A stretch of DNA of 64,000 nucleotides from Candidatus Rifleibacteriota bacterium (GCA_028689875.1 JAQVCG010000002.1:3086-67085); one strand, 5' to 3'; counted from the first letter of the stretch, positions 30,737-55,615 are shown. The notes: a model not told the origin generated them from the letters alone. Made by a program: numbers and translations.

Positions 30737-30776
30737 AATATTTTTAAACTTTTTTAAAACTATTCGGTAATATATA

Positions 30777-32397: not shown

Positions 32398-32399
32398 AA

Positions 32400-34596: not shown

Positions 34597-36002
34597 TTCC
34601 TCAAAAGATTATCTGTGTTGATATCGGCTCGACATACACAAAAGGCGCTGTTTTCAACCCGACAGAGGATCGTTTTAATGTGAGCGCCCGCGCGGTTGTG
34701 CCTACCACGGTAAATTACCTTCCGGATGGTTTTTATAAGGTTCTTGAGGCGCTGATCCCCGGCTCTGGCTCAAAGCAGGCTTATGATAAAGCGGAATTTC
34801 CCGTTTTCTTTTCTTCGTCCGCTAAGGGCGGCCTTAAAATTGCCGTAATCGGGCTGGTGCCTGAGATGTCTCTAAATATCGCTCGTTTGGCAGCATTCTC
34901 GGCCGGTGCAAGGGTTTGTGCCGCTTTCCCATACCGCTTGGGCAAGGCTAATATTGCGCAAATCGAAAGTTTGGCGCCAGATATTCTGCTTTTCTGTGGC
35001 GGCACTGACGGCGGCAATGAACGCTACGCACTCGAAAATTCGAAAATGATTGCTGCCTCAAAATTTGCAGGCACCATAATTTATGCCGGGAATAATTTTG
35101 TGGCCGATGAAGTGGCTGAAACACTCTCTAACAAAGATATTGTGGTTACCGAAAACGTTATGCCCGATTTTGGCAAACTAAATATAGAGCCGGTCAGAGA
35201 CGCCATTAGAAAAGTTTTCTTAGAAAAAATTATTTCAGGGAAAGGCCTAGATGAGCTTGTCAAAAAGTTCGAAACCTTGCCTGTTCCAACGCCGCTCGCA
35301 GTTTTTAATCTTGCAAAGGCAATCGGCGAAAATGTTAAAGACTGGGATAACTTCGCCATTATCGATATGGGTGGCGCTACAACCGATTTTTATTCTTATA
35401 CCAATGCTTTTCATTATGACGGCGAAACAGTAATGAAGGGTATCTTAGAACCTATTTTGAAAAGAACCGTCGAAGGTGACCTCGGTATGAGGGTTAGCGC
35501 AGAATCAACTTACGAGACGGGAACAGATTATTTTGGCTCTATAGGCTTTGACGAAAGCAAATTAAACGAACTTAAAAATTATACTTTAAAAGTCTCTGAA
35601 TCACCCGAGTATTTGCCCGAAAATGAAAAAGAAAAAATGTTCGACCGTAGCTTGGCAGGAGCTTGTATTTATCATTCTTTGCTAAGACACGCCGGCACAA
35701 TTGAAGAAGTTTTCACAATTAAAGGCCGTATTTGGGCGCAAATAGGTAAAGATCTAAGAAAAATAAATAAAATAATTGGTACCGGTGGTTATTTGGCAGC
35801 CATGGGGCGAAACAATGAAAAGATTATTATTCCCTCTGAGCCAAGCACTCCCTGCGAAAAAATTCCCCTCTTACCACAAAAATTCACATATCACGCCGAT
35901 AACACATATATTTTGCCGCTTCTTGCCAACTTAGCGGAAAAATATCCAAAACAATGTGCTGTTACCGCAATAGAATCGTTGATCAATGAGCAGCAAAATT
36001 GA
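34593..36002 (+). CDS. glmL: glutamate mutase-associated protein GlmL/MutL (putative reactivating chaperone, ASKHA-like fold)
   Basis: A 469-aa ORF. It overlaps glmS by 4 nt and glmE by 4 nt, matching the conserved glmS-glmL-glmE order. Its size matches Clostridium GlmL (~460 aa). The N-terminal [16 protein letters not shown] resembles the ASKHA phosphate-1 motif. Confidence 0.75.
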
Positions 36003-37465: not shown

Positions 37466-38712
37466 GAATTTCAAAAGTAACGTTTTCTAGAGGTATTTCA
37501 GCATTTTATTTTGATGACCAGCGCGCAATTAAAAAGGGCGCAAAACACGACGGCTTTACTTATGTAGGTCAGCCCCTAACACAGGGTTTTACAAATATAA
37601 GACAGGCCGGACAGAGCATATCTATTATTATGCTACTCGAAGACGGGCAAATAGCGACTGGCGATTGCGCTGCAGTTCAGTATTCCGGCGCAGGCGGACG
37701 CGATCCCCTTTTCCTTGCTAACGAATTTATTCCTTTCTTGGAAAAACATATTAAACCGCACCTTGAAGGCATGGAAATCGGCACTTTCAGAGATATGAGC
37801 AAAAGGTTTTGCGAAATGAAAATTGAAGGAAAACCTTTGCATTCCGCAATTAAATACGGCTTGACCCAAGCATTGCTTGATGCGGTTGCAAAATCGCTCA
37901 GAATTATGCCTTGTGAAGTTGTGTGCAATGAATATAGCTTACCAATTATTGCAAAACGCGTGCCCATATTTGGACAGAGCGGCGATGACAGATATAACAA
38001 TGTTGACAAGATGCTTATAAAGGGCGTTGAAGCTTTGCCGCACGGCTTGATTAATAATGTCGAGGAAAAACTTGGCTTGCAGGGGGAAAAACTCAGAGAA
38101 TACGTCAGATGGCTTGTAAAACGTGTTAAAACCCTCAGAGCTTGCGACAGTTACAAACCTGATTTGCACATAGACGTGTACGGAACTATCGGACAACTTT
38201 TTGAAAATGATATGATAAAAGTTGCTGACTATGTGGCATCGCTTGAAAAAGACGCCGAAGACCTGCAACTATACATCGAAGGACCCGTTGATGTTGAAGC
38301 AAAATTGCCGCAAATCGAAGCGCTCAAAACAATCACTGATCGCTTAAGAGCTATGGGCTCAAATGTTAAAATTGTTGCTGACGAATGGTGCAACACGTAT
38401 GAAGATATTAAAGATTTTACCGATGCAAAATCTTGCCATATGGTACAAATCAAAACGCCCGATTTGGGCGGAATACAGAATATTGTAGAAAGCGTTATTT
38501 ATTGTAAGCAGAATGGCATGGAAGCTTATCAGGGCGGAACATGCAATGAAACTGACAATACAGCGCGTATTTGTGTGCATTTGGCGATGGCTGCACAAGC
38601 CGAAAGAATGCTAGCAAAACCGGGTATGGGCTTTGACGAAGGCTATACAATTGTAAATAACGAAATGGAACGAATTATTTCCGTTCTCAAAATGAAATAC
38701 GGAGAAAAATGA
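37462..38712 (+). CDS. mal: 3-methylaspartate ammonia-lyase (methylaspartase)
   Basis: The track ORF starts at 37396. I place the start at the ATG at 37462, which overlaps the glmE TGA, giving 416 aa (Clostridium MAL is ~413 aa). The N-terminus MRISKVTFSRGISAFYFDDQRAIKKGA parallels MKIVDVLCTPGLTGFYFDDQ.AIKKGA from memory. The fold is enolase-superfamily. Confidence 0.85.
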   Translation: MRISKVTFSRGISAFYFDDQRAIKKGAKHDGFTYVGQPLTQGFTNIRQAGQSISIIMLLEDGQIATGDCAAVQYSGAGGRDPLFLANEFIPFLEKHIKPHLEGMEIGTFRDMSKRFCEMKIEGKPLHSAIKYGLTQALLDAVAKSLRIMPCEVVCNEYSLPIIAKRVPIFGQSGDDRYNNVDKMLIKGVEALPHGLINNVEEKLGLQGEKLREYVRWLVKRVKTLRACDSYKPDLHIDVYGTIGQLFENDMIKVADYVASLEKDAEDLQLYIEGPVDVEAKLPQIEALKTITDRLRAMGSNVKIVADEWCNTYEDIKDFTDAKSCHMVQIKTPDLGGIQNIVESVIYCKQNGMEAYQGGTCNETDNTARICVHLAMAAQAERMLAKPGMGFDEGYTIVNNEMERIISVLKMKYGEK

Positions 38713-38713
38713 A

Positions 38714-40090
38714 ATGACTAAGAAAGAATTTAAGGTTCTGTCGCCAACCGCCATACTTGGTTATGGTTTTCCTGAATCATCTTTTAAGCGCGGAATCGAG
38801 AAAAAACCCGATTTGATTGCTGTTGACGCCGGTTCAACTGATCCGGGTCCTTTCTATTTGGGTGCTGGAAAAGCTTTTACAGACAGAGAATTCGTTAAAC
38901 GCGATTTGAAATACATGATTTGTGCCGGCGTTGAACATAAAATACCTGTAGTGGTTGGAACTGCAGGCGGTTCGGGGGCTGATGTGCACCTTGAATGGTG
39001 CAGACAAATCGTTGAAGAAATAGCCAAAGAAAATAAACTAAGCTTTTCTATGGCCGTTATACCATGCGATGTTTCGAAAGAAAACGTTAAAATGGCAATT
39101 GACGAAGGCAGAATAGTGCCTTTGGCATATGTTCCGGAACTAACCAAAAAAGATGTTGATGACACAACTTACGTTGTGGCACAAATTGGCACGGACCCCA
39201 TTATAGAAGCCCTTAAAGATGGTTGCGACGTTGTTCTGGCAGGACGATGCTATGATCCGGCTTGCTTCGCAGCACTTCCTATTATGAAAGGCTATGACCC
39301 AGGATTAGCACTGCATATGGGCAAAATTTTGGAATGTGCAGCGATTGCGGCAACACCGGGTTCCGGTTCTGACTGCGCAATGGGCACTTTAACCGAAGAT
39401 TCATTTATTCTCGAAGCTCTTTCTCCGGACAGAAACTTTACTTGCGAATCTGCTGCGGCACATACTTTGTATGAAAAAACCGACCCATACCACTTGCCGG
39501 GGCCGGGTGGAGAAATTAACCTTGAAAATTGCTCCTTTAAAGATGTGGGCAACGGAAGGGTTGAAGTCAAGGGCAGCAAATTTGTGCCAACAGAAAAGTT
39601 TTATCTGAAACTTGAGGGTGCAAAATGCATCGGCTATCGCACCATAAGCATTGCCGGAACGCACGACCCGATAATGATTGCAAATATCGATAAGGTTTTG
39701 CAGGAAGTTAAAGACAGAATTAACGTTATTTCGGGTGACAGCAAAAGAAGCGATAACTTGTTTTTCCATGTATATGGTAAAAATGGTGTTATGGGCAGTC
39801 TTGAACCGAATCCGAATGTTAAATCGCATGAGCTTTGCATAGTAATTGAAGCTCTGTGTCCAACTCAAGATCAGGCAAATACCCTTTGCAGCGTGGCTCG
39901 CTCGACAATGTTGCATTATGGTTACGAAGGGCGCGTTTCAACTGCCGGTAATCTGGCGTTCCCGTTCTCTCCATCTGACATAACAGTCGGAAAAGTATTC
40001 GAGTTTTCAATCTATCACCTTATGGATACAAAAAATCAAGTGCTTTTCAAACATCGTATCGAAAAATACGAAAATGGAACGAGGAAATAA
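38714..40090 (+). CDS. DUF1446 (AtuA-like) family protein
   Basis: A 458-aa ORF starting 2 nt after the mal stop. The N-terminal ILGYGFPESSFKRGIEKKPDLIAVDAGSTDPGPFYLGAGK fits the AtuA/DUF1446 N-terminal pattern from memory. It is followed immediately by a DUF4387 gene, the usual partner of DUF1446. Confidence 0.6.
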   Translation: MTKKEFKVLSPTAILGYGFPESSFKRGIEKKPDLIAVDAGSTDPGPFYLGAGKAFTDREFVKRDLKYMICAGVEHKIPVVVGTAGGSGADVHLEWCRQIVEEIAKENKLSFSMAVIPCDVSKENVKMAIDEGRIVPLAYVPELTKKDVDDTTYVVAQIGTDPIIEALKDGCDVVLAGRCYDPACFAALPIMKGYDPGLALHMGKILECAAIAATPGSGSDCAMGTLTEDSFILEALSPDRNFTCESAAAHTLYEKTDPYHLPGPGGEINLENCSFKDVGNGRVEVKGSKFVPTEKFYLKLEGAKCIGYRTISIAGTHDPIMIANIDKVLQEVKDRINVISGDSKRSDNLFFHVYGKNGVMGSLEPNPNVKSHELCIVIEALCPTQDQANTLCSVARSTMLHYGYEGRVSTAGNLAFPFSPSDITVGKVFEFSIYHLMDTKNQVLFKHRIEKYENGTRK

Positions 40091-44295: not shown

Positions 44296-46374
44296 TTATA
44301 ATCCTAACGTTTGTCGTAATAATGGCTTCACAGAAGCATCCCGACCCCTAAACATGCGAAAAACTTCCGCAGGGTGTTTGCTGCCGCCAAGCGCTAAAAC
44401 AGTGTCTCTGAAACGCTTGCCGGTTCGCGCAACAGCTTCTTTGTTATCGGTGCCCTCCTCAATAAAGGCCTCGTAAGCATCGGCACTAAGCACCTCTGCC
44501 CACTTGTAGCTATAATAACCTGCCGCATAGCCGCCCGCAAAAATATGCGTAAACGCACAAAGAAACATATCGTTTTCGTATGGTTGCAACACGCAAGTCT
44601 CGGTTGCAATTCTTCTAAAAGCATCAAATGGTGTTTCTGTGCCATTTATGTCGTAGTCACCGTGTAAATATAGATCTGCTTTCGCAAAAGTGAGCTGTCT
44701 CTGCATCTGATATGCCGCTCGGTAGTTTTGCGATTCTTTTAATTTTTCATAAAGTTCTTTGGAAAGGGGCAAACCGGTTTTGTAGTGCCGTGCCATCTCT
44801 TCTACTGTAGCCTGCTCGGTGCACCAATTTTCCATAAACTGGCTTGCAAGCTCAACCGCATCCCATTCTATGCCTGAAACGCCCGCAGCGTCGGCCTCAT
44901 CAACCGTGGTGAGCATTCCTTGCAATGCATGCCCAAACTCATGAAACAGCGTATTTACTTCGTAAAAACTCATAAGCGACGGTTCAGAACCAATCGGAGG
45001 AGTTCCGTTGCATATTACATATACCACAGGCCGTACCAGCTTGCCGTTAGTAATACGGCGATTGCGGCAAGTGTTCATCCATGCGCCGCCGCGCTTTTCA
45101 GAAGGACGCGAATATGGGTCTAAGAAGAAATGCGCAATCATTTCGTTCTTTTCGTCAAATACATTGTAAAATCTGACATCTTCGTGCCAAGTCGGAATCT
45201 TAGGGTATTCAGAGGTTTTTATAGTTATGCCGAACAGTCTTGTGCATAAGTTAAACATAGCATCTAAAACTTGCGGCATCGGAAAATAAGGCTTGAGCTG
45301 CTCTTCTGTGAATGAAAAAAGCTTTTCGCGCATGCGTTCTGACCAATACATCATGTCCCAGGGCATTAGTTTTTCTTTAAAACCGCTTTTAGTCGCAAAC
45401 TTTTGTAGTTCTTCATGCTCCTTTTGGGCAGAAGCCGCCGCAGCTTCTTCTAGTTTAGCAAACATTTCAAAAACGTTTTCAGCCTTTTGAGCCATTTTAC
45501 TGCTTAAACTTAGTTCTGCATGGTTTTTGTAGCCAAGCATTTGTGCTTTTTCATTTCTAAGACTTAGAATTTCTCGAATTAGCCCGGAATTGTCAAACTC
45601 CCCTTCAGAGGCTCTTGTTGTGTATGCGTGATATAGCTCAAAACGTCGATTGCGATTTTTAGAATGCTGCATAAAAGGTATATAACAAGATTGATCAAGG
45701 GTTATAAGCCACGGACCTTCATTGTAATCAAGGTTTGCCGAAGTTTTATTTGCTTTCTTTTGCCAAGCCGAATGCGTAAGCTTTTTTAATGATTCAGGCC
45801 AACCGTCAGTTTCATCTTTCTCTGTTATCGTTAATGAATAAGCTTTAGTCGCATCTAAGACATTGTTTGTAAACTTGTTTGAGGCTTCGTTTAAACGTTT
45901 TATTATGTTATTAAATTTTTCTCTGTCACTATCGTTTAAACCTATACCGCATTTTTCAGCTGATAAAATCTGCTTATCGATTATGCGCTGCTTTGAGCTA
46001 GATAGTTTTTCATATTCAGGGCTTGATTGAAGCTTTTTTAGTGCCTTGTAAATAGGAACACTTTGAGATAATTGTAACGAGATTTTTGTGCACTCAGGCA
46101 TTAGCAAATCGTAAACTTTGCGAAGTTCATTTGAATTTTTTACGCTCTTAAGGTGACCTAAGATTTGCCAAGTATATTCAAAATCAAGATCTATTTCTTC
46201 AAAAGGCTTGAAAAGTGCATCCCAGGTTGGCTGTGCATTGTCTTCAACTTGTTTTAATACTTTTTTTGTTTTTTCAAATACTTCAAGAACTGCCGGTTCA
46301 AAATGCTCGGCAGTGATTTCATCAAATAAAGGCAGTCCTATGCGCCTAGAGAGTGGGTTATTATTTGTGCTCAT
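44296..46374 (-). CDS. prlC: M3-family oligopeptidase A (PrlC/OpdA-like zinc metallopeptidase), paralog 1
   Basis: A 692-aa ORF. It has the HEXXH zinc site in FHEFGHALQGMLT and the downstream Glu in GIEWDAVELASQFMENW. The C-terminus GGYAAGYYSYKWAEVLSADA is typical of oligopeptidase A / thimet oligopeptidase family. Confidence 0.85.
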   Translation of the reverse strand: MSTNNNPLSRRIGLPLFDEITAEHFEPAVLEVFEKTKKVLKQVEDNAQPTWDALFKPFEEIDLDFEYTWQILGHLKSVKNSNELRKVYDLLMPECTKISLQLSQSVPIYKALKKLQSSPEYEKLSSSKQRIIDKQILSAEKCGIGLNDSDREKFNNIIKRLNEASNKFTNNVLDATKAYSLTITEKDETDGWPESLKKLTHSAWQKKANKTSANLDYNEGPWLITLDQSCYIPFMQHSKNRNRRFELYHAYTTRASEGEFDNSGLIREILSLRNEKAQMLGYKNHAELSLSSKMAQKAENVFEMFAKLEEAAAASAQKEHEELQKFATKSGFKEKLMPWDMMYWSERMREKLFSFTEEQLKPYFPMPQVLDAMFNLCTRLFGITIKTSEYPKIPTWHEDVRFYNVFDEKNEMIAHFFLDPYSRPSEKRGGAWMNTCRNRRITNGKLVRPVVYVICNGTPPIGSEPSLMSFYEVNTLFHEFGHALQGMLTTVDEADAAGVSGIEWDAVELASQFMENWCTEQATVEEMARHYKTGLPLSKELYEKLKESQNYRAAYQMQRQLTFAKADLYLHGDYDINGTETPFDAFRRIATETCVLQPYENDMFLCAFTHIFAGGYAAGYYSYKWAEVLSADAYEAFIEEGTDNKEAVARTGKRFRDTVLALGGSKHPAEVFRMFRGRDASVKPLLRQTLGL

Positions 46375-46531
46375 TTTATACCTTTCGGTTGTTTTACTGT
46401 GACTAAAATATTTTGAAAACCATAACTTACAACCCGTTTCACGCTATTTTACATTTATTTAACAAGAATTTCAATTATTTCTAATATACGCAATCATATT
46501 TATATGAACTTAACTTTCAAGCTTCTGTTTT

Positions 46532-46560
46532 TTGACTTTGAAGATTTAAAGTGTTAAATT
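46532..46560 (+). promoter_or_regulatory. putative promoter of the pilus/T2SS-like operon, possibly producing a leaderless transcript
   Basis: TTGACT (46532-46537), a 17-nt spacer, and TAAATT (46555-46560). The annotated ATG at 46567 lies only 6 nt downstream of the -10 element, with no SD. The ~190-bp region is a divergent promoter region shared with prlC. Confidence 0.25.
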
Positions 46561-46566
46561 CAATAT

Positions 46567-47829
46567 ATGGTGAATATCGCTTATGCAAATAATTTGGGTG
46601 TGCTAAACTTGCCCCTCGAGTATAACCCGGGAAAACTAAAAAAAATCTTGGGTGCTTTGCCATTCGTCATTGAAGCAAACGGTATCAGAATTCTTGACCA
46701 CGAACCAATTGATTATAACGATATTATATCTGTCTCAGCTAACTCGGTTTATCTTGAAATCTTAAACCGAAATAACTCAGTTTTTAGGTTGAACTGCGGT
46801 TTTAAAGCGAAAAAATTCGCTGAACTTATTGAAATTGTAAAAAACGAAAATTCTGAGTATGCAAAATATTCCGATGAGCTTGAAACAGTTGATTTAAATG
46901 ATTCATTTGTTTTCGTAAAAAATATCCTGGAATTTAGAACGTTACCTTACGTGCGTGCTGTTAACTTCATTTTAAAAATTGCAATCGTAAAAAATTTGTC
47001 CGACATTCACTTTGAACCGACAGAATCAAACGAGATAAACCTCACCGTAAGGCAATCAGGACAAATAATCAAAGTTGTCTCATTAGAAAAGCATAAATAC
47101 GAAAGACTCGTAGCCAGGTTGAAATATTTGTCTAAATGTCTTTCTCACGTTGATGATATTGCTCAAGAAGGCTCTTTTAAGCATTCTAATATAGATGTGA
47201 GGCTGTCGACCTTTCCAACAGATAATGGTGAAAGAATCTCCTTAAGAATTATTAACACAATCAAATTTTTATCCCTAAATTCTCTGGGCTGGTCTGACAA
47301 ACAAGCTAGTATTTGGCTTGATTCAATTAAATGCAACAGAGGTCTATACATAATCTCAGGAAGAGTAGGAAGCGGCAAAACCACCGCCATGTATTCTTCG
47401 CTATATGAGCTTTCTATTTTAGGCGACCATTTAAGAGCAGTAACAATAGAAGACCCTGTTGAGTCATTTATCCCAGGAATATGCCAAGCATCTTTGTCTT
47501 CTATGAAAGAAAAATCATTGGCAAATGCTTTTAAACATATTTTGCGGCAAGATCCCAATATTATCGCCCTCGGAGAAATAAGAGACAGTAATTGTGTTAA
47601 AGAAGTCTTACAGGCTTCTTTGTCGGGGCATTTAATTTTTGCGACTTTTCATGCCGGTTCTATAGATGAAACTGTGGCAAGACTTAAACAAATGTCCTCA
47701 GACGAAAATATAGTATTAGCTGGCCTGAAAGGTATATTACACCTGGAATTAAAAAGAGAAGGGCAGGTATTGTGCCCCGAAGTTCATTTTGCGAAAATTT
47801 GTGAAAGCAAGCTGGAGCAAGTATTCTGA
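46567..47829 (+). CDS. GspE/PilB/PilT-superfamily secretion ATPase (type II secretion / type IV pilus assembly ATPase-like), short form without zinc-finger
   Basis: A 420-aa ORF. Walker A GRVGSGKTT, Asp box VTIEDPVE, Walker B/Arg finger ILRQDPNIIALGEIRD, His box SGHLIFATFHAG. The N-terminal ~220 aa are a divergent N2-like domain. There is no CxxC tetracysteine motif. Confidence 0.75.
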   Translation: MVNIAYANNLGVLNLPLEYNPGKLKKILGALPFVIEANGIRILDHEPIDYNDIISVSANSVYLEILNRNNSVFRLNCGFKAKKFAELIEIVKNENSEYAKYSDELETVDLNDSFVFVKNILEFRTLPYVRAVNFILKIAIVKNLSDIHFEPTESNEINLTVRQSGQIIKVVSLEKHKYERLVARLKYLSKCLSHVDDIAQEGSFKHSNIDVRLSTFPTDNGERISLRIINTIKFLSLNSLGWSDKQASIWLDSIKCNRGLYIISGRVGSGKTTAMYSSLYELSILGDHLRAVTIEDPVESFIPGICQASLSSMKEKSLANAFKHILRQDPNIIALGEIRDSNCVKEVLQASLSGHLIFATFHAGSIDETVARLKQMSSDENIVLAGLKGILHLELKREGQVLCPEVHFAKICESKLEQVF

Positions 47830-48827
47830 TGAAAAACTTAGGAATGGGTCTTTCCGGTTCTAAGAGCATCGATATGTTTGTTTTACATTTCGGTTCTCTT
47901 TTGTTAAACAAAAAGTCTATAAATTCCGCTCTGAGAGCTCTTGACGATGATAAAACTCCCAGATATATTTCATCGAGAGCCGTAAAAATGGTTGAATATC
48001 TGGAATCAGGCAATGTGGCTGATTATAACGTTTTTAAAAAAGCTTTTCCTTTTTTGCCTGATCGCGTCATACACATAATTTCTTTGCCGATTTCTGACCG
48101 CACAAAGGGAATATTGCTAGTTAATTGGAAATATATAAAATTTAGTGTAAAGACTTTATTCAGCTATATTTATGCCCCGATTCTATCAGTGTCTTTTGGT
48201 TGCTTTATTTTCAGATCTTGCGCGCTTTTTGCTTTTCCTCAATTAAAGGAAATTATGTATGGATTAAATGTTGAGCAGTCTCATTACGCAGAATTTCTAT
48301 TAGGCTCTGTTCTTGCTGAAGGATCTGCAGGAATTGTAATTATGATTCCTGTAGTTTTATTCTGTTTATTAATGCTGTTTGCAATAATTATTTTATTTGT
48401 CAAAGGTGCAAACAAGCTTCAAGACAGAGCAAACTTATTGCGAATGCTTGCTGTTTTGCCTTTTAACGAACGATTGTCGGTTCTGGCAATGATGTCAGAA
48501 AAGCAGGTTTATAGGTCAGAATATTCAATTTATAAAGACTTTACTAATCTCTTGAACGAAGGTGTTGACATAAATTCAGCTGCTGCCAGAGCAGGCTTAA
48601 ATTCTCAACTGGTTTGGCTCATGCACCCTGCTTTAAGAAACGAGACTTCTTCAGATGTGATATTCGATGTTGCGGTAATATTTGAAAAAAGATTGGAATA
48701 TCTGATTGCGAAAACCGGGCACACCTTGAGGTTTTTGGCAATATTATTTGAAGCAGTTTTATTCACATCTTGCGTTTGGATAATGTGTTCTTCATTATCA
48801 GCTATATTAGCGGGTGCAGTATTATGA
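47829..48827 (+). CDS. GspF/PilC-like inner-membrane platform protein (divergent), copy 1
   Basis: A 332-aa ORF starting 1 nt after the ATPase stop. It has two T2SSF-like cytoplasmic segments (LHFGSLLLNKKSINSALRAL and FTNLLNEGVDINSAAARAGL, cf. the GspF repeats L..lL.aG.pl..al) separated and followed by TM helices. Divergence is high, so the call is tentative. Confidence 0.45.
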   Translation: MKNLGMGLSGSKSIDMFVLHFGSLLLNKKSINSALRALDDDKTPRYISSRAVKMVEYLESGNVADYNVFKKAFPFLPDRVIHIISLPISDRTKGILLVNWKYIKFSVKTLFSYIYAPILSVSFGCFIFRSCALFAFPQLKEIMYGLNVEQSHYAEFLLGSVLAEGSAGIVIMIPVVLFCLLMLFAIIILFVKGANKLQDRANLLRMLAVLPFNERLSVLAMMSEKQVYRSEYSIYKDFTNLLNEGVDINSAAARAGLNSQLVWLMHPALRNETSSDVIFDVAVIFEKRLEYLIAKTGHTLRFLAILFEAVLFTSCVWIMCSSLSAILAGAVL

Positions 48828-49834
48828 AAAATAAAGCAGATTATGCTCAAATAATTGAATTTTGTCAGATTATGCTGATTATATCAAAAAGCGAAGGTCG
48901 CACAAGCGGTTCTTTATCTGCATTACTTACAAAAGATAATGAAAATAAAGCCTCTCAGTGGGCAGTAACAATTTCACGAAATCTTGAACAAGGCAATTCT
49001 ATTGAAGAATCATGTCAAATTCTTGAGAATGTAGACCCCGTATTGAATAGATTGTTGCCTTTGATATTAAAAAAACAACTTTATTATTTATTAGAATCAT
49101 ATATTCGTTTTCTTACTTTTCTTGAATTATTGAAAGAAGATACGAAAAATGCATTGTTTTATCCTTTTATTTTGGCGTGTTTGCTATTTTTGAGCCTTTT
49201 GCAGCTTAATTATGTTTTATTTCCCGAAATGGCAAAAATAGTACAAGATTTTGGTGCGAATTCGCCTTTTCTGATGAACATTCTATTTTTTGCAGACAAA
49301 GCATATTGGCCACTATCTTTGCTAATTCCATTAGTCATTTTATTATTTTTATTCTTAACAACCATGTCAGTCATTAACGGCGGAATTTATGCTAATTCAT
49401 TCATAGCTAAAATTACCGGGATACAAAAAGCTCTGAGATTGCAGGAAATATCAAGAATTCAAAATTTGATAGGATTATATCTTTCATCAGGCGAAACACT
49501 TGAAAATACCATACAAACTGTGGCTGAGCTATGTACGCAACAAAATAAATCTTACCTCTTATTTGTTGCAAAAAAACTTGCTGAAGGAATTTCCCACGAG
49601 ATACTTTTTGAAGATTCTGAAATTTTTGACATTATGTTGGGTAATGAAGGTGATAATGATTTATCATCCAGATTTAAAATAGCCTCAGAGAATAATTACA
49701 AATCATCTAAATTCCTTATAAAAGCATATTCCGGTGTTATGACTATGTTCTCTTTGCTCGCAGCTTCTCTTCTTGTTGCATTGATTGTGTGCGCTACTTT
49801 TGATTCATATTATTGGTTGATGTGGAGTATTTAA
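48824..49834 (+). CDS. GspF/PilC-like inner-membrane platform protein (divergent), copy 2
   Basis: The track ORF starts at 48770. I place the start at ATG 48824, which overlaps the copy-1 stop as ATGA, giving 336 aa. The N-terminal soluble segment (DYAQIIEFCQIMLIISKSEGRTSGSLSALL), TM helices, and a second soluble segment (IGLYLSSGETLENTIQTVAEL) mirror the two-repeat GspF architecture. Confidence 0.45.
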   Translation: MKNKADYAQIIEFCQIMLIISKSEGRTSGSLSALLTKDNENKASQWAVTISRNLEQGNSIEESCQILENVDPVLNRLLPLILKKQLYYLLESYIRFLTFLELLKEDTKNALFYPFILACLLFLSLLQLNYVLFPEMAKIVQDFGANSPFLMNILFFADKAYWPLSLLIPLVILLFLFLTTMSVINGGIYANSFIAKITGIQKALRLQEISRIQNLIGLYLSSGETLENTIQTVAELCTQQNKSYLLFVAKKLAEGISHEILFEDSEIFDIMLGNEGDNDLSSRFKIASENNYKSSKFLIKAYSGVMTMFSLLAASLLVALIVCATFDSYYWLMWSI

Positions 49835-50193
49835 TGATTTATCGTAAAGGTATAACTCTTGTTGAAATTTTAATTGCCGCTAGTTTGTGCGCTTTTATGC
49901 TTGTTTCAATAAATAAGCTAGCCGGAAATCTGAATAATACATTGAAAAAAACTGATAAAAACTCAGTTGCGATATTTATGATAGAAAGTATAAAAAACAA
50001 GGTAAAAGCTGACCTATCGAGTGGAATGGTTACATATGATGCTATAAATCCTGATATTACACAATTTACAAATTCAAAAGATTGGCACATCAAAGTAATA
50101 AAAAGAGAACAAAATGGAGTTAAATTAGTATTATTCAATAAAGATCTGTATTCCGGTTTAGTATATGAATTTGGAGTTTTTGAAAATGAATAG
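49834..50193 (+). CDS. pilin/pseudopilin with prepilin-type leader
   Basis: The track ORF starts at 49813. The ATG at 49834 overlaps the upstream stop (TAATG) and gives a 119-aa protein. Its MIYRKG|ITLVEILIAASLCAFMLV leader has Gly at -1, Glu at +5 and a hydrophobic helix. Confidence 0.6.
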   Translation: MIYRKGITLVEILIAASLCAFMLVSINKLAGNLNNTLKKTDKNSVAIFMIESIKNKVKADLSSGMVTYDAINPDITQFTNSKDWHIKVIKREQNGVKLVLFNKDLYSGLVYEFGVFENE

Positions 50194-50599
50194 AAGAGCT
50201 TTTACTCTTATAGAAATGATGATTGTGATTGCATTGATGGCGATAATAATCACTTTTGTGCATATCGGCAACACCGGATTTATGACAAATATTTCACAGA
50301 AAAATGAAATAATTAAGAATAACGATAATTTAGCCTCCTTTTATTTATACATGAAAACTCAATTAAAAAATTGTGATTCAGTTATCTTTGCTGATGAATA
50401 TATTGTAAAGTTTAAGCCGGATATAGTATTAAGAAGTCTTAATAATGGGCATTCTGTAGAATTTAATGACAAATTGTTCGTTTTTGGCAATAACTACAAA
50501 ATTTGGGGATATGAGAAAGTTGATGAAAACACCTTCTCAATGCAGTTTAGCAATGTTAATGAAAATATCAGAGTGTTTTGGAGAGTAGGAAATGAATAA
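50186..50599 (+). CDS. pilin/pseudopilin with prepilin-type leader
   Basis: The track ORF starts at 50165. The ATG at 50186 gives a 137-aa protein with an MNRRA|FTLIEMMIVIALMAIIITFV leader (Ala at -1, Glu at +5), the same RRAFT(L/M)IE leader as the pilin at 32400. Confidence 0.6.
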   Translation: MNRRAFTLIEMMIVIALMAIIITFVHIGNTGFMTNISQKNEIIKNNDNLASFYLYMKTQLKNCDSVIFADEYIVKFKPDIVLRSLNNGHSVEFNDKLFVFGNNYKIWGYEKVDENTFSMQFSNVNENIRVFWRVGNE

Positions 50600-50828
50600 C
50601 ATAAATAAACGTAAAGGATTCGTTCTCTTCTTAACCTTTTCTTTTGGTATATTTCTATTGTATTCTGCTTTTTCAGTAAGTTTTAATGACGTAGTGGCTT
50701 TGTGTAGAAAACAAAACCACTGCCTCGACTTGGCAGGAAGAATTAAAAATAGTGAAGCTAAAACTACTTTTATAGATCTTTCAGACTCCGAGTGTGAAAT
50801 TCAAAACAAATATGACAGCAACAGATAA
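50592..50828 (+). CDS. small pilin-like protein lacking Glu+5 (minor pseudopilin-like)
   Basis: A 78-aa ORF. MNNINKRKG|FVLFLTFSFGIFLLYSAF has a basic leader, Gly at -1, a Phe at +1 and a hydrophobic helix but no Glu5, as in GspK-type minor pseudopilins. It overlaps the upstream gene by 8 nt. Confidence 0.4.
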   Translation: MNNINKRKGFVLFLTFSFGIFLLYSAFSVSFNDVVALCRKQNHCLDLAGRIKNSEAKTTFIDLSDSECEIQNKYDSNR

Positions 50829-52716
50829 TTTGGACAACCTGCTTTACAAAGGAAAAACATTGGTCGCACTGACTCAAATGCTTGAGGAAGGGGCAGTGTG
50901 CGATGAAGATGTTTTGTTGTCGCTTTTTCAAGCTATAGATGATGATTTTTTATTGTGCAAATTTTTTGAACTGATTTCATCGCAAAATATTCAAAAAGGT
51001 ACTCAGTTGGCTGCAAAGTATCTGAACCACCCAAATCCAAGAGTTAGGGCTAACGCAATAGAAGTTGTCGCATTAGATATAAAGCCCCATTTAAGTAGGC
51101 TCCTAGATTTGGCAAACGATAAAAACAACCGTGTTGCAATAAATGCAATTATTGCACTTCAAAAGCATCCGGTTAAAAAAATGGATGAACTGATTAGTAA
51201 TCTGATTTATAAAACGCGTTCTGATTATAGTTTTAGTCTTTTGTACTTAATTGATAAATTGCCAAATTTCAACAAAATAGGGCTGCTTAATAAGCTGTTG
51301 TATGTACATAATCCGCATGTGAGAGACTTAGTATATGCTAAACTAAAAAAGCTCGAGAATAACGGTAATCAAAACGCTGCCAGGATAAGAAAAAATGTTG
51401 ATTCCCAAATTTTGATGCACCAAAATAGAAAGGATTTTTTTAGAAATACCTTAGATGATTTAATGGCATCATTTATTGATAGGTTTCAAGAAACTGATTT
51501 TTGCCAAGAAGAAATAAAAAGGTCAAAAGACCCTTTTGTTGAAAGAGAGGCAATCAAGAAGATACTAGATAAAGTTTCAATCGCTGATGTTGCTGATACC
51601 GGAACTCTTGAGAATATTAAATATATAGACTCTGATATAGAATTCTTAAACAATTTTTTGATTGCTTCTAAAAATAATTTTTCAAATTCAGAAGCTTTTA
51701 ATAAGGTCTTAATACGAATTGCTGAACAAGAGCTCGCAATATTAGAACAAAGGAAAAATTTCGCATTAACTTGTGCTATTTACGATTTATTTAAACCTGA
51801 TTATTCTGAAAAAAAAGAGGTTATATCAATTAAACCTGATTTAGCTTATTTAAAAGCTATAGTGTGGTCATATGTACCTGAAGAAGAATTCTCTGTTTTG
51901 CCGGGAAGAGAATTGTCGGTAATAGATATATTTACTCTTACAATGAATCTTTATCAAAAACATATTTGGGATTTTAGTGTTATAACATTTGAATATTTTT
52001 TAAAAGCAGCCATCTGGATTGGTTCAATTTTTGCTGCTTTTTATCTTATTCATCAATATATATTTCTTATATTTATTCCCGTTATATTGTTTTTTGTTGT
52101 TGTTTTTAAATGTTTAAAGCTTTTTATTGCATGGCAAATTTCTATCGTTCTGATGTTGCAAGATTTTGTACACGGTAGACCATACAATAAATCAGAAGTT
52201 TCTAATTCTGTATCAGAAATATTTACAACTGTTTATTATGTTGCTCAAGAAAAATATAAGCGCTTATTTTTATATGGTATCTTATTCACCGTTTTGGCCA
52301 AAGTCCTCTCTTTTGCTACACCGGCTTTTAGCATTGAAACAACAATGTATTCATTTATGAATTGGTTGGTTAATATTTCTTTCATCGTATTAACCAGTTG
52401 GCAAACCTTTAAGCTGCTTTTGGTTGAACCAATCGCTGTTATTGCTCCAAAATTCGATGCTTTTAAGACATCATTTGAGTTTTTTAACGAAAATAAACCA
52501 AAACTTATATTATTGTTTCTGATAGGTACTTTTTTGAGCAGCGCTGTTACGAACACTTCAGGACAGATTATGGATTTCTTGCCTTTCGGTTCATATCAAC
52601 TCTTTCTTAAATTGGTTCTTGTAATAGTTTCTAATCTGTTTTTGTCTCCGATTATTTTAAGTAATATGACAATATATTGTCTAATCAAATTTAAGAATTA
52701 TGAAGAAAAAATTTGA
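50794..52716 (+). CDS. polytopic membrane protein with N-terminal HEAT/PBS-like repeat domain, encoded within the pilus/T2SS-like operon
   Basis: A 640-aa ORF that overlaps the upstream gene. An alternative ATG lies at 50812. The N-terminal ~300 aa contain HEAT-like repeats (NPRVRANAIEVVALD, NNRVAINAIIALQKHP, NPHVRDLVYAKLKKL). The C-terminal ~250 aa contain 6-8 hydrophobic helices. Confidence 0.5.
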   Translation: MKFKTNMTATDNLDNLLYKGKTLVALTQMLEEGAVCDEDVLLSLFQAIDDDFLLCKFFELISSQNIQKGTQLAAKYLNHPNPRVRANAIEVVALDIKPHLSRLLDLANDKNNRVAINAIIALQKHPVKKMDELISNLIYKTRSDYSFSLLYLIDKLPNFNKIGLLNKLLYVHNPHVRDLVYAKLKKLENNGNQNAARIRKNVDSQILMHQNRKDFFRNTLDDLMASFIDRFQETDFCQEEIKRSKDPFVEREAIKKILDKVSIADVADTGTLENIKYIDSDIEFLNNFLIASKNNFSNSEAFNKVLIRIAEQELAILEQRKNFALTCAIYDLFKPDYSEKKEVISIKPDLAYLKAIVWSYVPEEEFSVLPGRELSVIDIFTLTMNLYQKHIWDFSVITFEYFLKAAIWIGSIFAAFYLIHQYIFLIFIPVILFFVVVFKCLKLFIAWQISIVLMLQDFVHGRPYNKSEVSNSVSEIFTTVYYVAQEKYKRLFLYGILFTVLAKVLSFATPAFSIETTMYSFMNWLVNISFIVLTSWQTFKLLLVEPIAVIAPKFDAFKTSFEFFNENKPKLILLFLIGTFLSSAVTNTSGQIMDFLPFGSYQLFLKLVLVIVSNLFLSPIILSNMTIYCLIKFKNYEEKI

Positions 52717-52728
52717 GCTGTAAATTGA

Positions 52729-53535
52729 TTATTTAGCTCTTTCGGGGATCAAAAACTTTAATATTAAAGCTAAAGTCAGACCGGTTAAAAAACCAATAAT
52801 ATGGCAATCAAATGCTACTCCACCAAGTAAAGGGTTGGTATTGTTTGCTTGCAACGCATTTATAAGTAAGTAAAAACCTAATACAACAAATGCCGGTACA
52901 TCAATTCGCCTAATAAAAAACCAAATTGGACAGAAAAAACTGGTAATAAGGTTTTTGGGGAAAAAAGCCATGTAAGCACCCATAATGCCACTTATTGCGC
53001 CACTCGCTCCCACCAGTGGAACTGTGGATTCAGGATTCAAATAAGCATGACCAATTCCTGAAATAGCACCCACAACTAAATAGAAAATAAGATAGCCTAT
53101 TTTACCCAGCCTCTCTTCAACGTTATCTGAGAAAATCCAAAAAAACCACATGTTAGATAATAAATGATCTAAACTTCCGTGTAAAAAACAAAATAATAAA
53201 GGCATTAACCAAATGATTATAGAATTAGTTTTAACTTTCAAAAATCCCAACAATTTTGCATCGTTTTCATTTTTAATACTTTCATTATATTCTTTCTCGT
53301 CAATTGAACGATTGATAAAATACTCTGTTTTGCCGTTAATATAAACTTCAGGCACTAACCCGTATTTATTGTTAAAGTTTGCTAATTTATAAATGCCAAT
53401 TGGAGATTTTTCCGGAGCTGAACCGATAATAGCCTGATAAGTGAATATTAGAAAACAAAATCCAATAATCCAATATGTTATTATCGGTTTACAGCTGATC
53501 TTTGAGTTCTTGTTGTCATGTACCGGAACGAACAT
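52729..53535 (-). CDS. rhomboid-family intramembrane serine protease
   Basis: A 268-aa ORF. The catalytic Ser motif GASGAISGIMGAYMAF and the His-containing helix (AFDCHIIGFLTGLTLA) sit within a 6-TM core, with an N-terminal extra TM. It lies 2 nt downstream of the oligopeptidase A paralog 2 stop. Confidence 0.75.
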   Translation of the reverse strand: MFVPVHDNKNSKISCKPIITYWIIGFCFLIFTYQAIIGSAPEKSPIGIYKLANFNNKYGLVPEVYINGKTEYFINRSIDEKEYNESIKNENDAKLLGFLKVKTNSIIIWLMPLLFCFLHGSLDHLLSNMWFFWIFSDNVEERLGKIGYLIFYLVVGAISGIGHAYLNPESTVPLVGASGAISGIMGAYMAFFPKNLITSFFCPIWFFIRRIDVPAFVVLGFYLLINALQANNTNPLLGGVAFDCHIIGFLTGLTLALILKFLIPERAK

Positions 53536-53536
53536 A

Positions 53537-55615
53537 TTATGTCCCAGAATTTAGTGAATGTCGCAAAAGAGCTTTTGTGTTTGATTCTCTACCGCGGAAC
53601 AATTTGAAAACTTCTGCAGGATGTAAGCTTCCACCCAAAGCCAGAACAGTGTTTCTGTATTTTCGACCTGTTGCTTTAATTGCTTCTTCATTGTCTATTC
53701 CGGCTTCTTCAAATGCAGCAAAAGCATCGGCACTTAATACTTCCGCCCATTTATAAGAGTAATAGCCTGCTGCATAGCCGCCTGCAAAAATATGGTTGAA
53801 GGATGCTAAAAACTTATCGTCTGCATAAGGCTTTACTATGCATGATTTATTGGCGATTTTCATATAAGCATCAAAAACACTTTCTGGGCCTGAAGGATCA
53901 TAATCGCTATGAAGATAAAGATCTGTCTTAGCAAATGAAATTTGCCTTTGCATTTGAAATGCAGCCCTGAATTTTTTCGCAGCTTTTAATTTTTCAAAAA
54001 GTTCATTCGGAATAGGCTCTTTGGTTTTGTAGTGTTCCGACATTTTTATCATTGTTGGCTTATTAACACACCAATTTTCCATAAACTGACTTGCTAATTC
54101 AACGGCATCCCATTCAATGCCATTTACACCGGCTGCCTCTGATTCATTAATAGTCGTTAACATGCCCTGCAATCCATGTCCAAATTCGTGAAACAAGGTA
54201 TTTACTTCAAAGAAACTCATAAGAGATGGGCGATGTTCAAGTGGTGGAGTCCCGTTGCATTCAATATATATAATCGGATTTCTAAGCTTGCCTTTGTAAA
54301 TTCTTCTGCTCGCACAAATGTTCATCCAAGCACCGCCACGTTTTTCAGATGGTCTTGAAAATGGATCTAAATAAAAGTGAGCGATCGTTTTTCCGCTTTC
54401 GTCAAAGATATCAAAAAAATCTACATTGTGGTGCCACTTAGGAATATCTGTTCGTGTAGATTTTTTGATTGAAATCCCAAAAAGTCTTTCACACAAACTA
54501 AATAAGCCTTCAATTACTTTTGGAAACGGAAAATAAGGTCTGACGTCATCTTCGGTGAAATTAAATTTTTTCTCCCGAAGTCTTTCTGCCCAGAAGGGGA
54601 TATCCCATTGCTTTAATTCTTCAGAAAAACCCGAATCAGCTGCAATTTTTTGTAATTCTAAATGTTCTTTTTCAGCGAATAGTTTTGTTTCTTTTTCCAG
54701 CTCATCAAACATCTGATAAACTTTTTGAGGCGTTTTTGCCATCTTAGTGTCTAAGCTGAATTCAGCGTAGTTTTTGTAACCCAAAAGTCTTGCTAATTCA
54801 CTTCTGAGGGTTAATATTTCTGTTATAAGTTTTATGTTGTCAGTTTCATCGGAAGTTGCACGGTTTACAAAAGCATTATAAACTTTAAACCTTAGATCTC
54901 TGTTTTTGCAGTTTTGCATAAATGGCTGGAAGCTTGGGTGATCTAAAGTGACGCTCCAAGGGCCAGAATCGGGCGTGGATTCTTTTGAATTATGCTTTTC
55001 GTTATAAGTTTGAGACGCCAGCATTTTAAGTGCTTTCGGCCAGCCGTCCGCATCTGCCGGGCTACTAACTATTAATTCAAATTTTTTTGTGGAATCTAGT
55101 ACATTATTGGAAAAATCACTGCCTAGTCTTTCAAGTCGATTAAATATTTCGTTAAAGCGCTTTTTTTCTTTTCCCTCAAGTGCAATGCCGGCTTGTTCAG
55201 CAAGTTTTATCTTTGTGTCAATAACTCTCTTCTTTGCATTATTGTAGGAGCTATACTCTTTGGTTTGTTTTATTTGCTTTAAACCTTCATATATTGGTTT
55301 ACTTTGAGACATTTGGAGAGTTAATTCAACAAACTCAGGCATACATTCCTGCAAAGCTTTTCTTAATTCACTTGAGTTTTTAACACTGATAAGGTGTTCT
55401 AATACCCCCCAAGTATATTCTAAAGGAACTTCTAAGTCTTCCAATGGCTTACATAAGCCTTCCCAGGTTAGAATTATATTCTTTTCTATTTTTGCCAATT
55501 CTTCTTTTATTTCGCTAAAGGTTTTCTTTAGGGCCGGAACAAAGTGCTCTGGTTTGATAAGGTCGAAGCGCGGAAGGTCTTCTCTGAGCATGAGAGGATT
55601 ATTTTGAAGTGACAT
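53537..55615 (-). CDS. M3-family oligopeptidase A (PrlC/OpdA-like), paralog 2
   Basis: A 692-aa ORF, the same length as paralog 1. FHEFGHGLQGMLT, GIEWDAVELASQFMENW and GGYAAGYYSYKWAEVLSADA are present. It is roughly 45% identical to paralog 1 by eye over the first 200 aa. Confidence 0.85.
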   Translation of the reverse strand: MSLQNNPLMLREDLPRFDLIKPEHFVPALKKTFSEIKEELAKIEKNIILTWEGLCKPLEDLEVPLEYTWGVLEHLISVKNSSELRKALQECMPEFVELTLQMSQSKPIYEGLKQIKQTKEYSSYNNAKKRVIDTKIKLAEQAGIALEGKEKKRFNEIFNRLERLGSDFSNNVLDSTKKFELIVSSPADADGWPKALKMLASQTYNEKHNSKESTPDSGPWSVTLDHPSFQPFMQNCKNRDLRFKVYNAFVNRATSDETDNIKLITEILTLRSELARLLGYKNYAEFSLDTKMAKTPQKVYQMFDELEKETKLFAEKEHLELQKIAADSGFSEELKQWDIPFWAERLREKKFNFTEDDVRPYFPFPKVIEGLFSLCERLFGISIKKSTRTDIPKWHHNVDFFDIFDESGKTIAHFYLDPFSRPSEKRGGAWMNICASRRIYKGKLRNPIIYIECNGTPPLEHRPSLMSFFEVNTLFHEFGHGLQGMLTTINESEAAGVNGIEWDAVELASQFMENWCVNKPTMIKMSEHYKTKEPIPNELFEKLKAAKKFRAAFQMQRQISFAKTDLYLHSDYDPSGPESVFDAYMKIANKSCIVKPYADDKFLASFNHIFAGGYAAGYYSYKWAEVLSADAFAAFEEAGIDNEEAIKATGRKYRNTVLALGGSLHPAEVFKLFRGRESNTKALLRHSLNSGT

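Follow-up and report, generated by a model that had tools for sequence, protein, structure and literature searches.

A predicted type IV filament assembly locus with twin platform proteins, conserved in Candidatus Riflebacteria

This study deals with a compact gene cluster (46567-52716, plus strand) in a 64,000-nt stretch of DNA from a Candidatus Rifleibacteriota bacterium (GCA_028689875.1, JAQVCG010000002.1:3086-67085), which is referred to here as the window and in which all coordinates are counted unless a locus is named. The cluster encodes an assembly ATPase, two platform proteins, three small pilins or pilin-like proteins and a membrane protein with HEAT repeats and transmembrane (TM) segments, named here HEAT-TM, and about 25-30 Riflebacteria species share the order of its first six genes. 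In our reading, the locus probably represents a complete and functional assembly core of a type IV filament (T4F), of a lineage-specific type conserved throughout the Riflebacteria, although a fair share of doubt attaches to this. The predicted proteins identify the module as a conserved, intact T4F machine core from the bacterial GspE/PilB/ComGA branch. It lies within this well-known superfamily and differs in its PH-domain motor, its twin full-length platforms, its set of three pilins and its reportedly diderm host. The original prediction, which was made from the sequence alone, had spoken of an uncharacterised minimal filament system, and the phylum-wide conservation of the six-gene core supports this description.

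Seven co-directional plus-strand open reading frames (ORFs) were recovered from the ORF listing, in agreement with the original prediction, and none of them contains a frameshift or an internal stop. With the gene starts taken from those supported by orthologues, successive genes overlap by 1, 4, 1, 8, 8 and 17 nt, as is typical of translationally coupled genes. The overlapping arrangement had been foreseen, but its upper value of 58 nt goes back to the longest ORF with a TTG start, the real maximum being 17 nt.

The host is a metagenome-assembled genome (MAG) of Candidatus Riflebacteria, an uncultured phylum, and the ATPase of the window is identical to a protein from such a MAG. The phylum has been classed as diderm Terrabacteria with OmpM (bioRxiv 10.1101/2021.05.31.446380). 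About 65 database proteins form a tight ATPase family, the full-length members of which score 240-920 bits with the N-terminus covered, whereas the bit score drops to about 170 for generic GspE/PilB proteins; all named members of the family are from Riflebacteria. For the comparison of gene neighbourhoods, 36 non-redundant Riflebacteria loci were assembled from the neighbourhoods of five relatives and from a scan of one genome per species, for which the ATPase alignment was used together with two peptide patterns, and hidden Markov models (HMMs) derived from the genes of the window and from their orthologues were used to annotate the loci. The order ATPase, platform 1, platform 2, pilin 1, pilin 2 and, where detected, pilin 3 is kept in every sufficiently long locus except L034, in which the ATPase gene is detached from the remaining genes. 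Platform 1 was found in 32 of the 36 loci, platform 2 in 27, pilin 1 in 25 and pilin 2 in 24, and pilin 3 was detected in about 19 species; short contigs and the very small size of pilin 3 account for the counts below 36. When compared with the 85%-identical relative L005 (dS, the synonymous divergence, about 0.8), all seven genes show ratios of nonsynonymous to synonymous divergence (dN/dS) of 0.07-0.23 and are under purifying selection. Synteny and dN/dS together argue for an ancient, selected, phylum-wide module rather than a remnant.

Outside the phylum, the next-best genomes in the ATPase scan were Clostridia, with PilB-PilT-PilC-PilA loci of 27-35% identity, a ranking that was partly shaped by the two peptide patterns. 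In addition, four MAGs labelled Erysipelotrichia, Candidatus Avigastranaerophilus or Gastranaerophilales (L017, L022, L025 and P0137) contain a Riflebacteria-type module or HEAT-TM gene with 44-77% identity. These are likely mislabelled or mis-binned assemblies and do not indicate a presence in those phyla.

The ATPase matches the Pfam family T2SSE (PF00437) over residues 127-400, which comprise, approximately, N2 and catalytic domains of the GspE/PilB type; at 186.1 bits (E 1e-54), the match lies above the cut-off of 24.9. Its motifs are intact, namely the Walker A motif GRVGSGKTTAMY, the Asp box TIEDPVE, the Walker B/Glu motif IALGEIRD and the His box TFHAGS. Invariant in 19 family members are G268, G270, K271, T272 and T273 of Walker A, E295, D296, P297, V298 and E299 of the Asp box, G336, E337, I338, R339 and D340 of Walker B/Glu, and T360, F361, H362 and A363 of the His box. 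A profile of the 19 sequences, searched against the PDB, matched GspE, PilB and PilF over residues 130-401 with E-values of 2e-63 to 4e-59 (EpsE 2e-63), followed by PilT (1e-28), BfpD (3e-24) and CpaF (1e-9); a TadA-family model matches the ATPase at 7.7e-10. The NCBIfam scores are 188.9 bits for GspE (TIGR02533, equivalog cut-off 630), 181.9 for PilB (TIGR02538, cut-off 676) and 177.9 for ComGA (NF041000, cut-off 300). An assignment of the ATPase to one of these subtypes was rejected, as the three models score about equally and all far under their cut-offs.

The ATPase had been described beforehand as lacking both the zinc finger and the long N1 domain, which our analysis bears out, although the protein is not simply a shortened one. 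The tetracysteine zinc-binding subdomain of GspE/PilB is absent in the 19-sequence alignment, as can be seen from the end of the chain about 45 residues past the His box and from the lack of any conserved Cys column, with two Cys in the window protein; the alignment with EpsE stops at chain residue 304, beyond which the query has only about 20 residues. Residues 1-126 match no Pfam family, the N1E/MshEN domain (PF05157) included, and are conserved within the family. In other systems, the N1E/MshEN domain binds GspL or c-di-GMP. An AlphaFold2 (AF2) model of this N-domain, built from the 19 sequences (pLDDT 88.7), shows a beta-sandwich capped by a long helix, and the 50 best Foldseek matches in the PDB all have the PH superfold (GRK2 PH, FERM F3, PTB), with a probability of about 1.0 and E-values of about 5e-3. 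According to the model, a PH-like, lineage-specific N-domain thus replaces the usual N1/MshEN. A search of 1.84 billion representative proteins with the N-domain profile returned 15 proteins, which are essentially all the Riflebacteria ATPase. The exception is a protein of 1599 aa from Myroides odoratus (P0145), in which 18 separate stretches match the profile; it is unrelated and apparently consists of a similar module repeated in tandem. Among the top literature matches, from which most subscription journals were missing, none mentioned an extension ATPase of a T4F with a PH-like domain. Since no partner of the PilM/GspL type is encoded in the window, the PH-like domain probably anchors the motor to the membrane or the platform, or regulates it there.

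The two proteins that follow the ATPase were expected to be divergent relatives of GspF/PilC, of which one per system is usual, and this reading has held. In the window itself, platform 1 has no Pfam match and platform 2 reaches T2SSF (PF00482) with only 16.0 bits, below the cut-off of 25.2 (E 0.012). The orthologues are more informative. The platform 2 orthologue profile matches residues 78-395 of the 417 residues of Myxococcus PilC, covering both T2SSF halves, at an E-value of 1.6e-9, and the platform 1 profile matches PilC only at 0.022; PF00482 is matched by 9 of 12 platform 1 orthologues (best 3.1e-10). A comparison of the two profiles with hhalign gave a collinear alignment over 248 columns (probability 95.5%, E 1.4e-8), and the TM segments of platform 1 (110-128, 173-191, 302-320) match those of platform 2 (115-133, 166-184, 305-323) in position. 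The AF2 model of platform 1 (pLDDT 77) has the layout Cyt1-TM1-TM2-Cyt2-TM3 with two helical cytoplasmic domains, and its top Foldseek match in the PDB is PilC (3jc8_Ca, probability 0.99), with a TM-score of 0.29 that is low because this PilC entry is an architectural model. Both platform proteins are therefore predicted, by profile and topology, to be full-length, two-domain proteins like GspF, PilC and ComGB (T2SSF), platform 1 being much the more divergent, and the possibility that they are not T2SSF-like at all is removed by these matches. No platform subtype was derived from NCBIfam, as the scores for GspF, HofC and ComGB are all similar and fall far short of the cut-offs. Platform 2 of the window matches ComGB at 1.2e-11, HofC at 6e-9 and GspF at 1.3e-8, ComGB is the commonest named match of the platform 1 orthologues (10 of 12), and some platform 2 orthologues match GspF best (9.3e-17).

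In a survey of the superfamily, the only paired platforms noted were TadB and TadC, which arose by a gene fission and each carry a single T2SSF domain (PMC6668835). Each Riflebacteria platform spans both halves and three TM segments, which argues for a true tandem duplication, probably at the base of the phylum, instead of a fission of the TadB/TadC kind. In trimeric PulF, a Tyr-Pro pair in TM segment 1 (TMS1) and a Glu/Gln-Pro pair in TMS3 line a proposed ion channel (PMC10790770). These positions were compared in 29 platform 1, 24 platform 2 and 39 Clostridia PilC sequences, an alignment that relies on divergent TM helices. On that basis, the TMS1 pair is kept as Tyr in 22 of 29 and Pro in 20 of 29 platform 1 sequences, and as Tyr in 23 of 24 and Pro in 24 of 24 platform 2 sequences. 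The Glu of TMS3 occurs in 22 of 29 platform 1 sequences and in none of the 24 of platform 2, and the TMS3 Pro is kept in neither. Such an asymmetry would fit two subfunctionalised platform partners in one hetero-oligomer.

The three small proteins had been taken together as carriers of prepilin leaders, which holds for all three, but the third has Leu instead of Glu at position +5 and is pilin-like, not a standard prepilin. Pilin 2 is the clearest of the three, with an N_methyl match (PF07963) of 32.4 bits against a cut-off of 21.2 (E 5.7e-8) and a TIGR02532 match at 1e-6. In the 18 species compared, Gly (11) or Ala (7) stands at position -1, Phe (15), Val (2) or Ile (1) at +1, and Glu without exception at +5; the Ala at -1, pointed out earlier, is thus simply the other residue accepted at this position. 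The segment FTLIELMIVIAI is near-invariant, and dN/dS, at 0.073, is the lowest in the operon. As the most canonical and most conserved pilin, pilin 2 is likely the major subunit. Pilin 1 remains below the N_methyl cut-off (16.7 bits, E 0.0055) and has a dN/dS of 0.17. In 22 species, its -1 position is Gly (19) or Ala (3), its +1 position an aliphatic L, V, I or M (21) or F (1) and its +5 position Glu (17), Asp (4) or Phe (1), and with an aliphatic residue at +1 it would be a pilin of the minor type. In NCBIfam, the best named match of pilin 1 is GspI and that of pilin 2 is GspH, both of which cover only the shared N-terminal helix, and the NCBIfam pilin models ComGC and ComGD score 17.6 bits (cut-off 75) and 16.8 bits (cut-off 70). 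As regards the profile families proposed for the operon, only the ATPase (T2SSE) and pilin 2 (N_methyl) of the window are above the cut-off, the T2SSF, pilin 1 and pilin 3 results being below it or without any match.

Pilin 3 matches no Pfam or NCBIfam profile, N_methyl included. Its leader motif R-[RK]-G/F-[TV]-[LI]-[YF]-[LF] (the slash stands between positions -1 and +1) is nevertheless conserved, with Gly at -1 in 17 of 17 species, Phe at +1 in 16 of 17 and Leu (13) or Phe (4), never an acidic residue, at +5, so that all features of a class III leader except Glu5 are present. The tip complexes of T4F are capped by a subunit that lacks Glu5 (PMC10191384), and by analogy pilin 3 is read as an initiating cap, which makes it a candidate tip or initiator subunit. 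In the closest relatives, L005 (7660-7851) and L008 (13999-14190), pilin 3 is shortened to about 52 aa from the conserved start (63 aa from an upstream ATG), and a short gap lies between it and the HEAT-TM gene; its C-terminal tail would therefore be dispensable or variable.

About 13 kb upstream of the operon, a second pair of prepilin genes is found within a pilin-related module on the plus strand (28424-33966). The pair comes after the genes for a 770-aa protein with a pilin-like N-terminus (KNSG/MLLLVV), for a sigma factor of the ECF type and for a putative anti-sigma factor of 352 aa, and the module also encodes a LysM protein. The first prepilin of the pair matches N_methyl at 2e-4, and its translation shares with pilin 2 the RRA/FT(L/M)IE leader, as had been noticed before. 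An ATPase or platform gene belonging to this module did not come up in the Pfam scan, and the whole window contains none besides those of the operon. Its two prepilins may be further substrates of the operon's machine.

The search for additional components relied on a Pfam scan of ORFs with 110 aa or more in the window, including each long non-nested one, and on the neighbouring loci. No secretin, A24 peptidase, PilT, PilMNOP or GspC/L/M was matched in the window, where a PilD profile was negative as well, so that the absences listed in the original prediction are confirmed, and the neighbour tables of six loci contain no GspD, GspC/L/M or PilMNOPQ. For PilD, the GxGD[IV]KL motif detected a gene in about 29 of 46 Clostridia type IV pilus (T4P) loci, which were taken as a positive control and 25 of which provided the PilD HMM. 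A second ATPase is not found beside the module in any of the 36 Riflebacteria loci, apart from a weak 78-bit match in L028 to an ORF of 932 aa some 2 kb upstream, as compared with PilT in about 40 of 46 Clostridia loci from the same scan. In the Rifleibacterium clade, a protein of 238-252 aa with only a Secretin_N domain is encoded about 6 kb upstream of the module (L002 3311-4027 and L007 3157-3915, both on the minus strand, L019 and L030); it is too short for a secretin.

From these components, a mechanism can be proposed. By homology, a hexameric ATPase of the GspE/PilB class would dock on a platform in the cytoplasmic membrane, formed by the two paralogous full-length PilC/ComGB-like proteins, probably as a hetero-oligomer, with the PH-like N-domain as the probable tether or regulator of the motor. 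A prepilin peptidase encoded elsewhere, as comC is unlinked in ComG systems (PMC6668835), would cleave the three class III leaders; it may also be absent altogether, and processing of the pilins is assumed here by analogy. Pilin 3 would then start and cap the fibre, pilin 1 join as a minor pilin and pilin 2 polymerise as the main subunit. Since no retraction ATPase, alignment complex or secretin lies nearby, the machine is expected to build a short pseudopilus within the cell envelope, similar to those of ComG and the type II secretion system (T2SS), rather than a long twitching pilus.

Several points weigh against this interpretation. The three pilins of the operon are fewer than in any characterised T4F, where one major pilin is accompanied by about four minor ones, and even the Com pilus, the accepted T4F minimum, has five (PMC10191384); the major or further minor pilins may therefore be encoded elsewhere, for example at 32400-33502. 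The C-terminal half of pilin 2 looks beta-rich by eye from its sequence, and the ComGC fold is not known to contain a beta-sheet. This fold has been described as a new one among pilins (PMC7212644). At the position of the TMS3 Glu, platform 1 of both the window and L005 has Arg, and a hetero-oligomeric platform is something we infer. With the motif and the PilD HMM, a prepilin peptidase was detected neither in the window nor in the 10 kb on either side of the module in the 36 Riflebacteria loci. Furthermore, in a diderm host, DNA uptake or a surface function would need a conduit through the outer membrane, and none was seen.

DNA uptake is the role that we prefer, tentatively and as somewhat less than probable, by analogy with the ComG-like composition, in view of the Terrabacteria phylum and because of a loose linkage to competence genes. 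comEC lies 5-6 kb downstream of the module in L002 (19700-21290), L007 (19696-21275), L030 and L040, and comEA at the same distance in L004 (20815-21263) and L020. This linkage also counts against the proposed role, as unrelated genes lie in between, only 6 species are concerned and it is absent from the window. In all six species, a conserved 260-aa protein is encoded just upstream of comEC or comEA, and a 55-aa membrane protein is found in the four ComEC loci. The ComG-like make-up in a diderm lineage that was predicted is confirmed as a resemblance in composition and size only, no ComG equivalog threshold being reached. That the module forms a separate, unclassified family of bacterial T4F, defined by a PH-domain ATPase, a heteromeric platform with divided channel residues and a fibre of three pilins, is possible but somewhat unlikely.

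A T2SS-like inner-membrane core, in which a periplasmic endopilus would push folded proteins through a secretin encoded elsewhere, seems quite unlikely to us. It would agree with the reportedly diderm phylum and with the lack of PilT, which is also lacking in T2SS, and the nominally best NCBIfam models are GspE for the ATPase, GspI and GspH for pilins 1 and 2 and GspF for some platform 2 orthologues. However, all Gsp scores are 3- to 10-fold under the equivalog cut-offs, the pilin matches being confined to the shared helix, and the ATPase has no GspL-binding N1. GspD, GspC, GspL and GspM are missing from the window and the six neighbour tables, and the only secretin-related gene nearby is that of the Secretin_N-only protein, on the opposite strand and in few species.

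A surface T4P for adhesion, aggregation or motility, as in Clostridia, is improbable to a similar extent. The nearest genome matches outside the Riflebacteria are the PilB-PilT-PilC-PilA loci of Clostridia, the N-terminus of pilin 2 is canonical for a major pilin, and retraction independent of a motor is known for some pili (PMC6668835). On the other hand, PilT/PilU occurs in none of the 36 loci, and PilMNOP and a secretin are missing from the window and the six neighbour tables although an outer membrane is reported. The pilins are also few in number and very small, and the peptide patterns of the scan contributed to the ranking of the Clostridia.

A Tad/Flp-like (type IVc) pilus, suggested by two adjacent platform genes, otherwise a hallmark of Tad/Epd (PMC6668835), and by several database entries that call the ATPase ‘TadA’, is effectively refuted by the far better profile match of the ATPase to GspE than to CpaF or the TadA family, by platforms that each span both halves with the full three-TM topology, by pilins of the N_methyl and not the Flp type and by the lack of TadZ, RcpA and TadV. 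The idea that a pil/gsp locus has decayed here to a remnant without function could draw on the very low profile scores of platform 1, pilin 1 and pilin 3, the missing accessory genes and the shortened pilin 3 of L005 and L008. It is equally refuted by phylum-wide gene order and purifying selection, together with intact reading frames, invariant catalytic motifs and retained translational-coupling overlaps.

The coordinates of the operon and of the features discussed in its surroundings are collected in Table 1.

Table 1. Features of the window; a slash in a leader sequence stands between positions -1 and +1.
Feature	Position	Strand	Remarks
Assembly ATPase	46567-47829	+	420 aa
Platform 1	47829-48827	+	332 aa
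Platform 2	48824-49834	+	336 aa; ATG at 48824 (ATGA overlap) is the orthologue start
Pilin 1	49834-50193	+	119 aa; leader MIYRKG/ITLVE
Pilin 2	50186-50599	+	137 aa; leader MNRRA/FTLIEMMIVIAL
Pilin 3 (pilin-like)	50592-50828	+	78 aa; leader MNNINKRKG/FVLFL
HEAT-TM protein, seventh gene	50812-52716	+	634 aa; overlaps pilin 3 by 17 nt
Candidate promoter	46532-46560	+	TTGACT, 17-nt spacer, TG-extended TAAATT; consensus scan
Rhomboid-family intramembrane protease	52729-53535	-	Pfam Rhomboid 7.2e-26; convergent, 12-nt gap to HEAT-TM
Oligopeptidase A (M3, PrlC-like), first paralogue	44296-46374	-	692 aa; paralogues 55% identical
Oligopeptidase A (M3, PrlC-like), second paralogue	53537-55615	-	692 aa
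Second prepilin pair, first gene	32400-32897	+	165 aa; NRRA/FTMIE; pair 13 kb upstream of operon
Second prepilin pair, second gene	32897-33502	+	201 aa; NKLG/FSMTE

The product of the seventh gene is, as predicted, a polytopic membrane protein with HEAT repeats, but it does not belong to the conserved six-gene core. HEAT_2 is matched at 4.6e-6 in the window, which is borderline (27.3 bits against a cut-off of 27.7), and at 4.6e-43 in 942-aa orthologues, and about 5-6 TM segments lie in the C-terminal part between residues 395 and 617. The gene is found in 8 of the 36 loci, all in one subclade and always together with the convergent rhomboid gene, and is thus subclade-specific; a large protein database contains four full-length homologues, the window protein included, the rest being HEAT-only matches. 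The rhomboid protease was considered as a substitute for the leader peptidase and not adopted, as it is confined to the HEAT-TM subclade and nothing supports this function. The two oligopeptidase A genes bracket the operon and the rhomboid gene, a layout also present in L005 and L008, and a PrlC-like oligopeptidase gene follows HEAT-TM and rhomboid in 6 of the 8 loci. In most Riflebacteria outside the subclade of the window, an ATP-grasp gene comes after pilin 3 instead (18 loci). It encodes a 387-aa ATP-grasp_4 protein about 125 nt downstream of pilin 3 (e.g., L002 14440-15603 and L004 14456-15622), is conserved to 51% identity and could be functionally linked, for example through pilin modification, or represent mere synteny.

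As regards expression, the candidate promoter ends 6 nt 5' of the ATPase ATG and represents weak, pattern-level evidence. Promoter-like sites in the scan are no commoner than in shuffled sequence. No Shine-Dalgarno sequence was found before the ATPase start, so the transcript may be leaderless. The 192-nt intergenic region (46375-46566) is 86% identical to that of L005, in spite of a dS of about 0.8 in the genes, and the promoter-like element is kept. Terminator-like sites number 9, as compared with a mean of 3.8 (sd 2.2) in shuffled sequence; none was found at the operon end in the terminator scan, and Rfam gave no match to a riboswitch or other RNA upstream of the ATPase at the gathering or E-value threshold. 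An origin of the operon as a horizontally transferred island of low GC content was rejected, because the drop in GC (0.31-0.35) runs through the whole right third of the window and is not specific to the operon. Elsewhere in the window, a plus-strand cluster at 34174-40090 encodes glutamate mutase (B12-binding S subunit, MutL-like reactivase and E subunit) and methylaspartate ammonia-lyase, and its predicted enzymes indicate glutamate fermentation via the methylaspartate pathway. A 748-aa fusion protein encoded at 22679-24925 (plus strand) combines SBP_bac_1, an extracellular solute-binding domain, and BPD_transp_1, an ABC permease domain, and a second permease gene comes after it.

T4F machines are among the most widespread nanomachines of prokaryotes, and the role and stoichiometry of the platform are their least understood part. 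Twin full-length platforms that are obligatorily kept and whose channel residues appear to be complementary could help to discriminate between a trimer and a dimer and between the channel and ‘drill-chuck’ models, and the PH-like N-domain would be another way of coupling or regulating the motor without a GspL or PilM partner. If no other pilins take part, a set of three would lower the known minimum of a filament. A search of the literature on Riflebacteria pili or Ozemobacter, in which most subscription journals were not covered, gave no description of this system, and it would be the first filament system described for the Riflebacteria. Should it be a competence pseudopilus, ComG-like machinery for DNA uptake would extend beyond monoderms. 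Should it be a separate family, it would be a ComG-like minimal machine under an outer membrane, with a bearing on the relation of Com pili to the transition from diderm to monoderm, and a natural experiment on the stoichiometry of the platform, trimer or dimer. Should these points not hold, what remains is just a divergent representative of a well-known superfamily, from a phylum without cultured members.

As no equivalog threshold of a named subtype is reached, the module should not be filed as ComG, T2SS, type IVa pilus or Tad, and it is best placed by comparison with each of the known systems. With Tad/Flp, it shares two adjacent homologous platform genes, which presumably cooperate, but the Riflebacteria platforms are two full-length two-domain proteins and the ATPase and pilins belong to the PilB/GspE branch. 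The T4P of Clostridia have sequence variants of Walker A and Walker B in common with it, and both lineages are Terrabacteria. They differ in a PilB that measures 560-570 aa and has both a zinc motif and an N-terminal domain, a single 400-aa PilC (about 405 aa), PilT in nearly all loci and a PilD-like gene in about 29 of 46.

The likeness to the T2SS consists of a GspE-class ATPase, a GspF-like platform, short pseudopilin-like subunits including one without Glu5 as an analogue of GspK, and the lack of a retraction ATPase. In contrast to the T2SS, no GspC, D, L or M is found in the Riflebacteria loci (window and six neighbour tables), the ATPase lacks the GspL-binding N1 and the zinc subdomain, and the platform is duplicated. 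The subunit without Glu5, with 78 aa, is also far smaller than GspK, which has about 300 aa.

ComG (comGA-GB-GC-GD-GE-GF-GG with an unlinked comC) differs in having one platform protein instead of two paralogues, five pilins instead of three and a monoderm Firmicutes host instead of a reportedly diderm one, whereas the Riflebacteria ATPase bears a PH-like N-domain and the pilins look beta-rich by eye, which the ComGC fold is not known to be. In addition, all equivalog cut-offs are widely missed (ComGA 178 of 300 bits, ComGB 44 of 240); in the ComM model, comC as well as comGA, comGB, comGC and comGD are mandatory (Denise et al., 2019). On the side of the likenesses, both are compact operons with the order ATPase, platform, pilins, and both comprise only the core parts of T4F, without PilMNOP, PilT or secretin and with the prepilin peptidase outside the operon, the Com pilus needing only pilins, peptidase, ATPase and platform (PMC10191384). 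The sizes agree as well, the Riflebacteria platforms having about 335 aa as compared with 332 positions in the ComGB model and the homology of the ATPase ending where the ComGA model ends, and in both systems the last pilin gene encodes a subunit without Glu5.

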